This document shows, piece after piece, positions 40-6,524 of a stretch of 6,524 nt of DNA (the first letter of the stretch is position 1; every line of letters starts with the position of its first letter). Origin of the DNA: a virus (taxonomy: Duplodnaviria; Heunggongvirae; Uroviricota; Caudoviricetes); the IMG/VR virus record IMGVR_UViG_2651869782_000024. The stretch is one strand, 5' to 3'. The notes beneath the pieces are model-generated. The model worked only from the letters and a program-made list of their open reading frames with translations, was not told the DNA's origin and did not search any database. The translations under genes were made by a program, and so were the position numbers.

Positions 40-297
40 CAAAGTCATCGGGCATTATCTGAACATAAAACACTATCAATAAGTTGGAGTCATTACCTAA
101 CATCCCTTCCTATTGAGAATGGGGTAAGCCTTTTAGTTCCACAGGCTATGGGGGGATATGATGTTGTGCTTGATATCAAAAAAGCAGGAAATGGCAGTAG
201 TTTTACTCTTTATGAACGTGTACCAGCATTAACGCCAAAAATTTTTGCTGATAGTGTTAATGCATGTAAATAATAGTTAATCCTGTCGTAACTCATG

Positions 298-325
298 AGC
301 CGCCTTTTGGGCGGCTTTGTTGTTT
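298..325 (+). terminator. Putative rho-independent terminator immediately upstream of the J ribosome-binding site
   Basis: Perfect 7-bp inverted repeat AGCCGCC (298..304) / GGCGGCT (310..316) with loop TTTTG, followed by TTGTTGTTT (317..325). The reverse complement has no downstream T-tract, so it is + strand only. GGAG at 328..331 lies 8 nt before the J ATG. Confidence 0.45.
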
Positions 326-339
326 ATGGAGTGTGAGGA

Positions 340-3300
340 ATGGGTAAAGGAAGCAGTAAGGGGCATACCCCGCGCGAAGCGAGGGACAACCTGAAGTCCA
401 CGCAGCTGCTGAGTGTGATCGATGCCATCAGCGAAGGGCCGGTTGAAGGTCCGGTGGACGGATTAAAAAGCGTGCTGCTGAACAGTACGCCGGTGCTGGA
501 CAGTGAGGGGAATACCAATATATCCGGTGTCACGGTGGTGTTCCGGGCAGGTGAGCAGGAGCAGACACCGCCGGAGGGATTTGAATCCTCCGGCTCCGAG
601 ACGGTGCTGGGTACGGAAGTGAAATATGACACGCCGATCACCCGGACCATCACGTCGGCAAACATCGACCGTCTGCGCTTTACCTTCGGTGTGCAGGCAC
701 TGGTGGAAACCACCTCAAAGGGGGACAGGAATCCGTCGGAAGTCCGCCTGCTGGTTCAGATCCAGCGTAACGGTGGCTGGGTGACGGAAAAAGACATCAC
801 CATTAAGGGCAAAACCACCTCGCAGTATCTGGCCTCGGTGGTGGTGGATAACCTGCCGCCGCGCCCGTTTAATATCCGGATGCGCAGAATGACGCCGGAC
901 AGCACCACAGACCAGCTGCAGAACAAAACGCTCTGGTCGTCATACACCGAAATCATCGATGTGAAACAGTGCTACCCGAACACGGCACTGGTCGGCGTGC
1001 AGGTGGACTCGGAACAGTTCGGCAGCCAGCAGGTGAGCCGTAATTATCATCTTCGCGGGCGCATTCTGCAGGTGCCGTCGAACTATAACCCGCAGACGCG
1101 GCAATACAGCGGTATCTGGGACGGAACGTTTAAGCCAGCATACAGCAACAACATGGCCTGGTGTCTGTGGGATATGCTGACCCATCCGCGCTACGGCATG
1201 GGGAAGCGTCTCGGTGCGGCGGATGTGGACAAATGGGCGCTGTATGTCATCGGCCAGAATTGCGACCAGTCGGTGCCGGATGGCTTTGGTGGCACGGAGC
1301 CGCGCATCACCTGTAATGCCTACCTGACCACACAGCGCAAGGCGTGGGATGTTCTCAGTGATTTCTGCTCGGCGATGCGCTGTATGCCGGTATGGAACGG
1401 GCAGACGCTGACGTTCGTGCAGGACCGACCGTCGGATAAGGTGTGGACCTATAACCGCAGTAATGTGGTGATGCCGGATGATGGCGCGCCGTTCCGCTAC
1501 AGCTTCAGTGCCCTGAAGGACCGTCATAATGCCGTTGAGGTGAACTGGATTGACCCGGATAACGGCTGGGAGACGGCGACAGAGCTTGTTGAAGATACGC
1601 AGGCCATTGCCCGTTACGGTCGTAACGTCACGAAGATGGATGCCTTTGGCTGTACCAGCCGGGGGCAGGCGCACCGCGCCGGGCTGTGGCTGATTAAAAC
1701 GGAACTGCTGGAAACGCAGACCGTGGACTTCAGCGTGGGTGCGGAAGGGCTTCGCCATGTACCGGGGGATGTCATTGAAATCTGCGATGATGACTATGCG
1801 GGTATCAGCACCGGCGGGCGCGTGCTGGCGGTGAACAGCCAGACCCGGACGCTGACGCTCGACCGTGAAATCACGCTGCCATCCTCCGGTACCACGCTGA
1901 TAAGCCTGGTTGACGGTCAGGGTAATCCGGTCAGCGTGGAGGTCCAGTCCGTCACCGACGGCGTGAAGGTGAAAGTGAGCCGTGTTCCTGACGGCGTTGC
2001 AGAATACAGCGTGTGGGGGCTGAAGCTGCCGACGCTGCGCCAGCGCCTGTTCCGCTGCGTGAGTATCCGTGAGAACGATGACGGCACGTATGCCATCACC
2101 GCCGTGCAGCATGTACCGGAGAAAGAAGCCATCGTGGATAACGGGGCGCACTTTGACGGTGACCAGAGCGGCACGGTGAATGGTGTCACGCCGCCAGCAG
2201 TGCAGCACCTGACCGCCGAAGTCACTGCAGACAGCGGGGAATATCAGGTGCTGGCGCGATGGGACACACCGAAGGTGGTGAAGGGCGTGAGCTTCCTGCT
2301 CCGTCTGACCGTAACAGCGGACGACGGCAGTGAGCGACTGGTCAGCACGGCCCGGACGACGGAAACCACATACCGCTTCACGCAACTGGCGCTGGGGAAC
2401 TACAGGCTGACAGTCCGGGCGGTAAATGCCCGGGGGCAGCAGGGCGATCCGGCGTCGGTATCGTTCCGGATTGCCGCACCGGCAGCACCGTCGAGGATTG
2501 AGCTGACGCCGGGCTATTTTCAGATAACCGCCACGCCGCATCTTGCTGTTTATGACCCGACGGTACAGTTTGAGTTCTGGTTCTCGGAAAAGCGGATTAC
2601 CGATATCAGGCAGGTTGAAACCACAGCCCGCTATCTTGGTACGGCGCTGTACTGGATAGCCGCCAGTATCAATATCAAACCGGGCCATGATTATTATTTT
2701 TACGTTCGCAGTGTGAACACCGTTGGCAAATCGGCATCCGTGGAGGCTGTCGGTCGGGCGAGCGATGATGCGGAAGGTTACCTGGATTTTTTCAAAGGAG
2801 AAATCGGGAAAACACATCTGGCCCAGGAGTTGTGGACGCAGATTGATAACGGTCAGCTTGCGCCGGACCTGGCTGAAATCAGGACGTCCATTACGAATGT
2901 CAGCAATGAAATCACGCAGACCGTCAATAAAAAACTGGAAGACCAGAGTGCGGCAATCCAGCAGATACAGAAAGTTCAGGTTGATACAAATAATAACCTG
3001 AACAGCATGTGGGCCGTGAAACTGCAGCAGATGAAGGACGGACGCCTTTATATTGCGGGTATCGGAGCCGGTATTGAGAATACGCCAGCAGGTATGCAGA
3101 GTCAGGTGCTTCTGGCTGCTGACCGGATTGCGATGATTAATCCTGCGAATGGCAACACAAAGCCGATGTTTGTTGGTCAGGGCGATCAGATATTCATGAA
3201 CGACGTGTTCCTGAAACGCCTGACGGCTCCGACCATTACCAGCGGCGGTAATCCTCCGGCATTTTCCCTGACACCGGACGGGCGGCTGACGGCGAAAAAT

Positions 3301-3819
3301 GCCGATATCAGCGGTAACGTGAATGCGAACTCCGGGACGCTCAACAACGTCACGATTAACGAGAACTGTCGGGTTCTGGGAAAATTGTCCGCCAACCAGA
3401 TTGAAGGCGATCTCGTTAAAACAGTGGGCAAAGCTTTCCCCCGGGACTCCCGTGCACCGGAACGGTGGCCATCAGGGACCATCACCGTCAGGGTTTATGA
3501 CGATCAGCCGTTTGACCGGCAGATTGTTATTCCGGCGGTGGCATTCAGCGGCGCTAAACATGAGCGGGAGAATAACGATATTTATTCGTCATGCCGCCTG
3601 ATAGTACGGAAAAACGGTGCTGAAATTTATAACCGTACCGCGCTGGATAATACGCTGATTTACAGTGGTGTTATTGATATGCCAGCTGGTCGCGGCCACA
3701 TGACGCTGGAGTTTTCGGTGTCAGCATGGCTGGTGAATAACTGGTATCCCACAGCAAGTATCAGCGATTTGCTGGTTGTGGTGATGAAGAAAGCCACCGC
3801 AGGCATCAGTATCAGCTGA
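340..3819 (+). CDS. J: Host specificity protein J (tail tip / central tail fibre), 1159 aa
   Basis: Complete ORF from the six-frame track. N-terminus [34 protein letters not shown]... and most of the length match phage lambda gpJ as I recall it. Position upstream of lom and stf matches lambda gene order. Shine-Dalgarno GGAG at 328..331. Confidence 0.95.
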
Positions 3820-3838
3820 ATTTTATAACCCATATACG

Positions 3839-3862
3839 GGCGCCAGAAATGGCGCCTTTTTT
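3839..3862 (+). terminator. Rho-independent terminator downstream of J
   Basis: GGCGCCA (3839..3845), loop GAAA, TGGCGCC (3850..3856), then TTTTTT (3857..3862). Starts 20 nt after the J stop codon (TGA 3817..3819). Confidence 0.6.
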
Positions 3863-3886
3863 ATTGCAGAAAAGCGAGAGGTAATT

Positions 3887-4486
3887 ATGCGTAAAGTTTG
3901 TGCAGTCATTTTGTCCGCAGCCATCTGTCTGTCCGTATCCGGTGCGCCTGCATGGGCGTCTGAACATCAGTCCACACTGAGCGCGGGGTATCTTCATGCC
4001 CGTACGAACGCTCCCGGCAGCGATAATCTGAACGGGATTAACGTGAAATACCGTTATGAGTTTACGGACGCGCTGGGGCTGATTACGTCCTTCAGTTATG
4101 CCAATGCTGAGGATGAGCAAAAAACGCACTACAGCGATACCCGCTGGCATGAAGATTCCGTGCGTAACCGCTGGTTCAGCGTGATGGCGGGGCCGTCTGT
4201 ACGCGTGAATGAATGGTTCAGCGCGTATTCGATGGCGGGTGTGGCTTACAGCCGTGTGTCGACTTTCTCCGGGGATTATCTCCGCGTAACTGACAACAAG
4301 GGGAAAACGCACGATGTGCTGACCGGAAGTGATGACGGTCGCCACAGCAACACGTCTCTGGCGTGGGGGGCTGGCGTGCAGTTTAACCCGACCGAATCCG
4401 TGACCATTGACCTTGCTTATGAAGGTTCCGGTAGTGGCGACTGGCGAACGGATGCATTTATTGTTGGTATCGGATACCGTTTCTGA
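3887..4486 (+). CDS. lom: Lom-family outer membrane protein (Ail/Lom/OmpX/PagC/Rck 8-strand beta-barrel family), 199 aa
   Basis: Complete ORF. N-terminal signal peptide MRKVCAVILSAAICLSVSGAPAWA with likely cleavage after AWA. Conserved family motifs GINVKYRYE, SVMAGP, AYEGSGSGDWRTD and a C-terminal ...GIGYRF ending in Phe, typical of outer-membrane beta-barrels. Shine-Dalgarno GAGAGG at 3876..3881, 5 nt before the ATG. Sits between J and stf as in lambda. Confidence 0.9.
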   Translation: MRKVCAVILSAAICLSVSGAPAWASEHQSTLSAGYLHARTNAPGSDNLNGINVKYRYEFTDALGLITSFSYANAEDEQKTHYSDTRWHEDSVRNRWFSVMAGPSVRVNEWFSAYSMAGVAYSRVSTFSGDYLRVTDNKGKTHDVLTGSDDGRHSNTSLAWGAGVQFNPTESVTIDLAYEGSGSGDWRTDAFIVGIGYRF

Positions 4487-4591
4487 CAACAGACGCCGAT
4501 TTATCTTCTGTAAATATTGTTATGATACGCAGGTTCATCCACTTTATGGGGTGAACTGCGTTTGAGGAAACGTAAAGTTACACTGTCCTGA

Positions 4592-4623
4592 AGCCCGTGG
4601 CGTCACTGCTGCGGGCTTTTTTT
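4592..4623 (+). terminator. Rho-independent terminator downstream of lom
   Basis: AGCCCG (4592..4597) pairs with CGGGCT (4612..4617); the stem can extend with G-U wobbles around a 4-nt loop. Followed by TTTTTTT (4617..4623). Located between the lom stop (4486) and the stf start (4638). Confidence 0.6.
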
Positions 4624-4637
4624 ATTGGTGGAAAAGT

Positions 4638-6524
4638 ATGACAGTAAAAATTTCTGGCGTGCTTAAAGATGGCACAGGAAAACCAGTACAGAACTGCACC
4701 ATTGTGCTGAAGGCCAGACGAACCAGCAGCACGGTGGTGGTGAACACGGTGGCCTCTGAAAATCCGGATGAAGCCGGACGTTACAGCATGGATGTTGAGC
4801 ATGGTCAGTACAGCGTCACCCTGCTGGTTGAAGGTTTTCCGCCTTCACATGCCGGGACCATTACCGTCTATGAAGGTTCCAGACCAGGTACGCTGAATGA
4901 TTTTCTCGGTGCCATGACGGAGGATGATGTCCGACCGGAGGCACTGCGCCGCTTTGAGCAGATGGTGGAAGAGGTGTCACGTAACGCCTCCGCGGTTGCA
5001 CAGAATACGGCAGCCGCGAAAAAATCAGCCAGCGATGCCAGTGCATCAGCCAGCGAGGCGGCAACTCATGCAACCGATGCTGCAGCCTCAGCACGTGCCG
5101 CCAGCACGTCAGCCGGACAGGCCGCGTCGTCGGCTCAGTCAGCGTCTTCCAGCGCAGGAACGGCATCGACAAAGGCCCGTGAAGCAGCAAAAAGTGCTGC
5201 TGCTGCAGAGTCATCAAAAAGCGCGGCAGCTACCAGCGCCAGTGCCGCGAAAACGTCAGAAACGAATGCCGCAGCGTCACAACAATCAGCAGCCACTTCT
5301 GCATCCACCGCGACCACGAAAGCGTCAGAAGCAGCCACTTCAGCACGGGATGCGTCGGCTTCAAAAGAGGCGGCAAAATCATCAGAAACGAACGCAGCCT
5401 CGAGCGCCAGCAGCGCAGCTTCCTCGGCAACGGCGGCAGCAAATTCTGCGAAGGCGGCAAAAACGTCCGAGACGAACGCCAGGTCTTCTGAAACGGCAGC
5501 GGGACAGAGCGCCTCAGCTGCGGCAGACTCAAAAACAGCGGCTGCATTATCTGCCAGTGCCGCGTCAACAAGTGCCGGGCAGGCCTCAGCCAGTGCCACC
5601 GCCGCCGGAAAATCGGCAGAAAGCGCCGCATCATCCGCTTCAACAGCCACAACGAAGGCTGGCAAAGCCACTGAGCAAGCCACTGCAGCAGCGAGGTCTG
5701 CTTCTGCAGCAAAAACCTCTGAAACAAATGCAAAGACTTCAGCAGACAATGCTGCTTCCTCTAAGGCGGCAGCCGCATCGTCAGCCAGTTCAGCGGCGTC
5801 ATCGGCATCATCTGCGTCTGCTTCAAAAGATGAGGCGACCAGACAGGCGTCAGCAGCAAAGGGCAGCGCCACGACGGCATCCACGAAGGCGACAGAGGCA
5901 GCTGGCAGTGCGACGGCGGCAGCTCAGAGCAAAAGTACGGCGGAATCCGCGGCAACGCGCGCCGAGACAGCGGCAAAACGGGCAGAGGATATTGCATCCG
6001 CCGTGGCGCTTGAGGATGCGAGCACGACGAAAAAGGGGATAGTACAGCTCAGCAGTGCGACCAACAGCACTTCCGAGTCACTGGCGGCAACGCCAAAAGC
6101 GGTTAAGGCGGTAATGGGTGAAACGAACAAGAAAGCGCCCTTAAATAGTCCTGCACTGACCGGAACGCCAACAACACCAACTGCGCGACAGGGAACGAAT
6201 AATACCCAAATCGCAAGCACGGCTTATGTTATGGCTGCGATCGCTGCCCTCGTGGACTCGTCGCCTGACGCACTGAATACGCTGAACGAGCTGGCTGCGG
6301 CGTTGGGCAACGACCCGAATTTTGCGACCACCATGACTAGCGCGCTTGCGGGTAAGCAACCGAAAGATGCCACCCTGACGGCGCTGGCCGGGCTTGCTAC
6401 TGCGGCAGACAGGTTTCCGTATTTTACGGGGAATGATGTTGCCAGTCTGGCAACCCTGACAAAAGTTGGGCGGGATATTCTTGCGAAATCGACCGTTGCC
6501 GCCGTTATCGAATACCTCGGTTTA
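4638..6524 (+). CDS. stf: Side tail fibre protein Stf, N-terminal 629 codons (3' end beyond window)
   Basis: ATG at 4638 preceded by GGTGG (4627..4631). I translated the frame by hand and it is open for all 629 codons to the window edge, which is why the track (which needs a stop) does not list it. N-terminus MTVKISGVLKDGTGKPVQNCTI... and the later ...DALNTLNELAAALGNDP...GKQPKDATLTALAG... segment match lambda Stf (orf-401 region) as I recall it. Confidence 0.9.
   Translation, partial: MTVKISGVLKDGTGKPVQNCTIVLKARRTSSTVVVNTVASENPDEAGRYSMDVEHGQYSVTLLVEGFPPSHAGTITVYEGSRPGTLNDFLGAMTEDDVRPEALRRFEQMVEEVSRNASAVAQNTAAAKKSASDASASASEAATHATDAAASARAASTSAGQAASSAQSASSSAGTASTKAREAAKSAAAAESSKSAAATSASAAKTSETNAAASQQSAATSASTATTKASEAATSARDASASKEAAKSSETNAASSASSAASSATAAANSAKAAKTSETNARSSETAAGQSASAAADSKTAAALSASAASTSAGQASASATAAGKSAESAASSASTATTKAGKATEQATAAARSASAAKTSETNAKTSADNAASSKAAAASSASSAASSASSASASKDEATRQASAAKGSATTASTKATEAAGSATAAAQSKSTAESAATRAETAAKRAEDIASAVALEDASTTKKGIVQLSSATNSTSESLAATPKAVKAVMGETNKKAPLNSPALTGTPTTPTARQGTNNTQIASTAYVMAAIAALVDSSPDALNTLNELAAALGNDPNFATTMTSALAGKQPKDATLTALAGLATAADRFPYFTGNDVASLATLTKVGRDILAKSTVAAVIEYLGL
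4998..5984 (+). repeat. Uninterrupted array of 47 heptads (21-nt period) encoding an Ala/Ser-rich probable coiled-coil shaft within Stf
   Basis: Translating the stf frame in 7-residue blocks from 4998 gives AQNTAAA, KKSASDA, SASASEA ... KTSETNA ... ETAAKRA with Ala at position 7 in all 47 blocks and Ser at position 3 in most. KTSETNA/KSSETNA recurs at 5250, 5376, 5460 and 5712, spacings that are all multiples of 42 nt. Confidence 0.75.

Follow-up and report, generated by a model that had tools for sequence, protein, structure and literature searches.

The alanine/serine heptad array of a lambdoid prophage side tail fibre is the described coiled-coil shaft in its common long form

A stretch of viral DNA 6,524 nucleotides long, which we call the window and analysed over its whole length, carries a tail fibre gene in which 47 consecutive heptads end in alanine. 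What kind of structure does such an array encode, and how did it come to have this length? A first-pass annotation had read it as a long alpha-helical coiled-coil shaft, longer than that of lambda and expanded by internal duplication.

The gene that carries the array is the stf (side tail fibre) gene of a lambdoid prophage. Pfam searches and the list of open reading frames identify the window as the distal end of a lambdoid tail module with the order J-lom-stf, which is common to the window, lambda and PhiR26_1. All three genes are on the plus strand: gpJ, the central tail fibre or tip attachment protein of 1159 residues, at 340..3819, recognised by six gpJ-specific Pfam domains; lom, an Ail/Lom outer-membrane protein of 199 residues, at 3887..4486 (PF06316, E=3.2e-126); and the 5′ part of stf at 4638..6524, which begins with the ATG at 4638, has 629 codons inside the window and is still open at the window end. 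Residues 1–134 of the stf product match the family 'Prophage tail fibre N-terminal' (PF08400, E=2.7e-70) over positions 1–134 of its 134. Within this region, residues 1–94 (4638..4919, plus strand) form the N-terminal collar domain, a β-sandwich plus helix, by correspondence with the solved structure of lambda Stf 1–94 (9e7m/9mgh, E=1.7e-47). The collar domain of Stf anchors the fibre at the gpV/gpM junction of the tail (PMC12617516).

The same protein is already in the databases. An E. coli protein at NCBI (P0001), 968 residues at full length and annotated as 'prophage tail fiber N-terminal domain-containing protein', is 100% identical across all 629 in-window residues, and window positions 98–6109 share 99% identity with prophages of UTI89 and many other strains. 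The shaft is closed by a conserved KGIVQLSSATNSTSESLAATPKAVK motif at residues 466–490 (6033..6107, plus strand), which matches the Mu tail fibre protein S (5yvq/8ju3). Identity to the UTI89-type prophages and to lambdoid phages stops at window position 6109, and the alignments thus place what appears to be a mosaic recombination boundary directly after this motif. Pfam holds no model that covers the Stf shaft, nor one for the distal part of the full 968-residue protein.

Retranslation of 4998..5984 in the stf frame (plus strand) bears out the heptad array. Residues 121–449, 329 in all, make up 47 heptads with Ala at position 7 in every one of the 47 and with zero register breaks. The register in fact runs two heptads further on each side, with Val or Thr at position 7 (EQMVEEV and SRNASAV before the strict array, EDIASAV and ALEDAST after it), and this extended array, with Ala, Val or Thr at position 7, spans residues 107–463 (4956..6026, plus strand); MVEEV and KGIVQL lie 357 residues apart, equal to 51 × 7. 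The array is real, and chance is a very poor explanation for it. When the residues of the segment were shuffled 5000 times, the longest run of Ala at period 7 had a mean of 5.7 and a maximum of 13, against the 47 observed, and the chance of 47 alanines in one given register at 40% Ala is 1.6e-19. A Fourier transform of the Ala indicator gives its strongest peaks at periods of 3.5 and 7. This repeat is visible in the protein and not as a tandem repeat in the DNA, where Tandem Repeats Finder reported no 21-nt or 42-nt array, just two trivial short arrays with periods of 12 and 9.

Long ORFs overlap the array at 4924–6042 on the plus strand and 5135–5884 on the minus strand, and at the corresponding site the lambda record carries a minus-strand frame, orf206b. 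It might be supposed that the periodicity reflects a gene in one of these other frames. The stf frame, however, is continuous with a domain of solved structure and with conserved motifs downstream, and the insertions and deletions that distinguish its relatives, described below, preserve the Stf heptad register. We regard an origin in another frame or strand as negligibly probable, and the overlapping ORFs themselves probably result from the scarcity of stop codons in a GCN-rich repeat.

The array is 40% Ala, 24% Ser and 12% Thr, with large hydrophobic residues nearly absent. Ser or Ala had been reported at both positions 3 and 4 of the heptad. This is mostly true of position 3 (39 of 47, with Ser in 37 and Ala in 2, the others being four Lys, two Gln, one Asn and one His), but position 4, which has Ala in 34 of 47, contains no Ser; its other residues are six Lys, five Glu, one Thr and one Gln, so that 11 of the 47 are charged. 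A check for apolar a and d positions finds the invariant Ala of position 7 (47/47) partnered either by position 4, with its 11 charged residues, or by position 3, with its four lysines. The assignment is therefore ambiguous (a = 4 and d = 7, or a = 7 and d = 3), and not all of the core is apolar. It is made of small residues and is not classically hydrophobic.

A stretch so rich in Ala, Ser and Thr, and almost without large hydrophobic residues, could also serve as a flexible low-complexity spacer, disordered or at most a single helix, in place of a packed coiled coil. We examined an AF2 single-sequence monomer model of Stf residues 95–500. It consists of one unbroken helix that covers fragment residues 4–389, or Stf 98–483, with a mean pLDDT of 72.8 and a pTM of 0.27; the pLDDT is moderate and dips below 50, which fits a spacer, with dips at fragment residues 161–169 and about 290–300. 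Being a monomer with a pTM of 0.27, the model is silent on oligomer state and packing. Its continuous helix nevertheless rules out the β-rich or disordered outcomes that would have spoken against a coiled coil, and it counts against the spacer as well. Disorder, moreover, would neither keep period-7/3.5 order across 51 heptads nor favour indels of whole heptads, and in tomograms of Ur-lambda the proximal domain of the fibre is seen to rotate as a rigid body (PMC12617516). We consider a flexible spacer very unlikely.

Similarly small odds attach to a different packing of the helices, as an antiparallel Alacoil-like fold-back or as some other oligomer, in place of an extended parallel trimer. 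The presence of small residues at three positions per heptad may resemble Alacoil-type packing, and the two dips in pLDDT can be counted on the same side. Such a fold-back has its counterpart in a folded AF3 model of Ur-lambda Stf, which is at odds with the authors' own cryo-ET, where the fibres are extended, and the twelve collar domains of Ur-lambda give four trimeric fibres (PMC12617516).

The reading as a long α-helical coiled-coil shaft, already favoured in the first-pass annotation, agrees with the AF2 helix and with two published accounts. Ur-lambda Stf is described as a collar domain (residues 1–91), a flexible linker (92–101), a proximal trimeric coiled coil (102–393), a hinge and a distal domain (Wang et al. 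2025, PMC12617516). That description draws on cryo-EM for the collar and the linkers (those leading into the coiled coil were seen by local refinement), on cryo-ET for the fibres and on segment-wise AlphaFold3 modelling, the shaft as published being an AF3 model fitted to the tomograms (PMC12617516). Lambda Stf was also among the long bacterial coiled-coil proteins listed in 2005 (PMC1322226). The Ala/Ser heptad array is the already-described coiled-coil shaft of lambda-type Stf, in the long form that is common; reading it as a coiled coil is correct but not new, having been published for lambda. The trimeric state and the function as a rod are probable by analogy with Ur-lambda, where AF3 modelling and cryo-ET/EM point to both. 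The PDB contains Stf at residues 1–94 only, and sequence searches there found no solved structure for the Ala/Ser heptads, the one hit, a weak one, being gp53 of Pseudomonas phage DEV. A match to the RNA polymerase CTD in these searches (E=5.1) was set aside as compositional noise.

We propose, with a probability of roughly 0.85, that the array forms the proximal trimeric coiled-coil shaft of Stf, some 51 heptads long, and that its length varies mostly by in-register recombination or slippage. The N-terminal collar (1–94) would be followed by a short flexible linker and then by about 51 uninterrupted heptads folded as a long α-helix, whose inner stripe would be formed by heptad positions 3, 4 and 7, almost all Ala and Ser. 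Three parallel chains would twist together as a thin trimeric coiled coil whose core is made of small residues, and the resulting rod, on flexible linkers, would keep the distal receptor-binding part away from the tail. At the standard coiled-coil rise of 0.148 nm per residue, the 47 strict heptads should span about 49 nm.

Comparisons with other proteins show which parts of this architecture recur elsewhere. The E. coli Lpp-56 alanine zipper is a parallel three-stranded coiled coil with Ala in core positions. Layers of Ala are mixed with layers of large hydrophobic residues in the Lpp core, but the inner stripe of Stf is almost only Ala and Ser over about 350 residues. The proximal shaft of T7 gp17, also from a phage fibre, is likewise a coiled coil, with no significant relation to Stf in the PDB sequence search (E=0.39). 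Closer in layout is gp53 of Pseudomonas phage DEV (PDB 9cod), in which a β-barrel collar (1–91) and a flexible linker precede a trimeric coiled coil (115–250) (PMC11445570). This collar–linker–coiled-coil arrangement is shared with Stf, the gp53 heptads include KVSETNA, and residues 124–256 of gp53 align weakly to Stf 176–304 (E=1.5e-4 for the whole protein and 0.012 for the array by itself). DEV differs in being a podophage with a 15-copy collar, and the gp53 N-domain gave no sequence match here. The gp53 coiled coil is also much shorter than that in the window, at about 135 residues, and is an AF2 model fitted to low-resolution density, the deposited model covering the N-terminal barrel only.

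The array is indeed longer than that of lambda, as the first-pass annotation had suggested. Lambda Stf has 32 heptads where the window has 47, and the difference comes down to one gap 105 residues long, or exactly 15 heptads. The missing block corresponds to residues 304–408 (5547..5861, plus strand) in the alignment with lambda orf-401. Counted as extended arrays the two have 36 and 51 heptads respectively, and the unbroken run with Ala alone at position 7 is 29 heptads in lambda compared with 47 in the window. The likeness is otherwise close, extending to gene family, gene order, the collar domain of residues 1–94, the heptads of the shared part, the K(T/S)SETNA motif and the closing KGIVQLSSATNS motif, and the distal part after residue about 490 differs as another mosaic module. 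The 15-heptad block would make this segment of the shaft ∼15.5 nm longer than the equivalent lambda segment.

Stf of the Escherichia phages PhiR26_1, mEp460_ev081 and Turner, like P0001, has the same 47-heptad array of the same length, as do further phages, and the stf genes of these three named phages share 90–91% DNA identity with the window over stf nt 1–1472. Differences among all four and the window are confined to the distal receptor-binding modules, the shaft being indistinguishable. In PhiR26_1, Tfa directly follows Stf; in the prophage studied here a tfa gene and the C-terminal receptor-binding domain would fall past the window end.

Heptad counts across a wider set of homologues, a comparison that the first-pass annotation had suggested, were obtained from searches with the N-domain only, as a whole-protein search gave only near-identical 968-residue proteins. 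They show that array length does vary. The uninterrupted period-7 run in representatives at 50% identity is anywhere from about 5 to 51 heptads long; it usually begins at residue 113, and its lengths cluster near 19, 24, 35–36 and 50–51 heptads. The distances between the flanking anchors in relatives are 133, 245, 252, 350 and 357 residues, all multiples of 7. The 51-heptad class to which the window belongs is the longest seen, with no array above 51 heptads among the scorable homologues drawn from 80 loci and 150 representatives, and it accounts for 34 of the 80 viral contigs that the N-domain search returned. Since the 15-heptad block of residues 304–408 is found in 3667 of 5426 complete E. 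coli genomes, we conclude that the long form is the common form and not an unusual one.

The first-pass annotation attributed this length to internal duplication, on the strength of a KTSETNA heptad recurring at spacings of 6, 4 and 12 heptads. The spacings are correct: the copies are heptads 13 (5250..5270), 19 (5376..5396), 23 (5460..5480) and 35 (5712..5732), all on the plus strand. One of the four, heptad 19, reads KSSETNA. Were the 47 heptads the product of recent duplication of multi-heptad blocks marked by this motif, its recurrence would be readily explained. Glu at position 4 together with Asn at position 6 occurs four times where position-specific composition predicts 0.53 (P=0.0004), and identical heptad pairs number 7 in the array against an expected 0.62. 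The DNA also has short direct repeats spaced by multiples of 21 nt, and heptad arrays must ultimately stem from duplication.

The array as a whole, however, gives no sign of repeated blocks. A self-comparison by heptad offset is flat at every offset, with identities of 0.31–0.48 for protein and 0.35–0.49 for DNA. The best pairs of 3-, 5- and 8-heptad blocks, in protein or DNA, are no better than those of a column-shuffle null in which position-specific composition is preserved (the fraction of nulls reaching the observed value being 0.12–0.70), and the four K(T/S)SETNA copies have a DNA identity to the reference copy of merely 72–79%. Every shorter relative, furthermore, is a simple left-to-right subset of the window array, and none is longer. 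Without block-level self-similarity above the composition null, and with short forms that are no more than subsets of the long one, the array gives no support to internal duplication. Any duplications that built it are too old to detect. Recent duplication appears to us improbable.

The recent history of the array looks instead like in-register deletion from a long form, since the short forms are subsets of it and none exceeds 51 heptads. We counted indels among cleanly aligned relatives, with at least 75% identity and at most 3 gaps, leaving out four divergent loci (L028, L041, L051 and L069) with many small, unreliable gaps. Whole heptads were involved in six of eight distinct events, of 7, 105 (at three positions), 112 and 224 residues; with a 1-in-7 chance for each event, the binomial probability is about 2e-4.

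The crossovers are clean, run from left to right, and fall within heptads that resemble one another locally. A deletion of 16 heptads (L011 class) joins KSSETNA of heptad 19, its left endpoint, to KTSETNA of heptad 35, its right endpoint. One of 15 heptads (P0140 class) joins ATSASAA to ALSASAA, one of 32 heptads (L045 class) has its junction within AASSA.SAS, and one of a single heptad joins SASDA to SASEA (L008). At the 15-heptad junction in lambda there is only GCx-GCA microhomology. The two exceptions to the whole-heptad pattern are a one-residue deletion in AKSAAAA (L014–L017) and a gap of 220 residues that leaves a four-residue stutter (L052). Because these occur naturally, an unbroken register seems to be favoured but not obligatory.

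These events are what would be expected if similar heptad-coding units recombined or slipped in register, with the loss of whole numbers of heptads, and it is because whole numbers are removed that the coiled-coil register would be kept. To judge from the alignments, the K(S/T)SETNA repeat does seem to matter, as the recombination junction at which heptad 19 was joined to heptad 35 in the L011 class. That the shaft probably changes length by whole heptads, at junctions between similar heptads, is a modest addition to what has been published and is unsurprising. A literature search that combined 'heptad' with 'side tail fiber' returned no description of variation in Stf heptad number, and one that combined 'alanine-rich' with Stf returned nothing.

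Since the array is the already-described shaft of lambda-type Stf in its common long form, the finding is an ordinary one, and it carries little weight as a discovery, the protein being an annotated and very common E. coli prophage tail fibre. The length classes raise the further idea that shaft length is a discrete, selectable trait. Classes of ∼19, 35–36 and 50–51 heptads, corresponding to ∼20 to 53 nm, would arise when similar heptads, such as K(S/T)SETNA, recombine in register, and would determine how far the receptor-binding tip extends in comparison with the central fibre, to suit the depth of the host O-antigen or capsule. We put this forward tentatively and think it rather unlikely to hold. 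The length classes and the junctions are observed directly; it is an adaptive, as distinct from a neutral, role for length that we infer.

Two by-products may be of practical interest. The lambda shaft turns out to be one without a 15-heptad block that most complete E. coli genomes carry, and the whole-heptad rule for indels suggests how Stf chimeras of defined length could be designed with the register intact.

The heptad array of the Stf coiled-coil shaft contains four K(T/S)SETNA heptads, at 5250-5270, 5376-5396, 5460-5480 and 5712-5732, which introduce Glu and Asn into a stripe that is otherwise made up of Ala and Ser. A counterpart, KVSETNA, is found in the coiled coil of the Pseudomonas phage DEV long tail fibre gp53 (residues ∼190-200 of 9cod_A), and K(T/S)SETNA may represent a conserved structural layer. 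Natural Stf variants in which the heptad register is interrupted are seen among the viral loci that were retrieved with the Stf N-domain alone. In four of these (L014-L017), encoding proteins of up to 1680 aa, the heptad AKSAAAA is shortened by one residue at Stf residue ∼187, and in a fifth (L052) a 220-residue gap at residue ∼143 results in a four-residue stutter, ATNA.

The shaft is closed by the conserved KGIVQLSSATNSTSESLAATPKAVK motif (6033-6107), which is also matched in the Mu tail fibre protein S (5yvq/8ju3) and which directly precedes a mosaic recombination boundary at window position ∼6109 (Stf residue ∼490). The matches to UTI89-type prophages (99%) and to lambdoid phages (about 90%) both end at 6109, and window 6023-6524 is matched at 92-93% in P88, Xuanwuvirus and Yersinia phages. 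The post-shaft segment, IASTAYVMAAIAALVDSSPDALNTLNELAAALGNDPNFATT... (window 6150-6524, Stf residues ∼505-629), matches the 'tail collar fibers gp4' of PDB entry 9d93 (E=7.5e-11), and no Pfam family is found for these residues at E<=0.1. Residues ∼505-629 are a conserved fibre module that lacks a Pfam model.

Outside the stf reading frame, three long 'shadow' open reading frames overlap the array: one of 372 aa on the plus strand (4924-6042), and two on the minus strand, of 249 aa (5135-5884) and 167 aa (5230-5733). We think that these frames arise because the GCN-rich repeat has few stop codons, and do not consider them to be real genes. A minus-strand 'orf206b' is annotated at the homologous position in the lambda reference record.

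Upstream of the shaft, a terminator-like hairpin (4590-4629, plus strand), comprising a 13-pair stem with 7 G-C pairs followed by a T-run, lies downstream of lom and ahead of the start codon of stf (4638), within the expected late tail operon. The gpJ protein of the window (340-3819) has 1159 aa, compared with 1132 aa for lambda J (15505-18903 in the reference record; 3399 nt including the stop codon), and retains the C-terminal receptor-binding domain PF12421.
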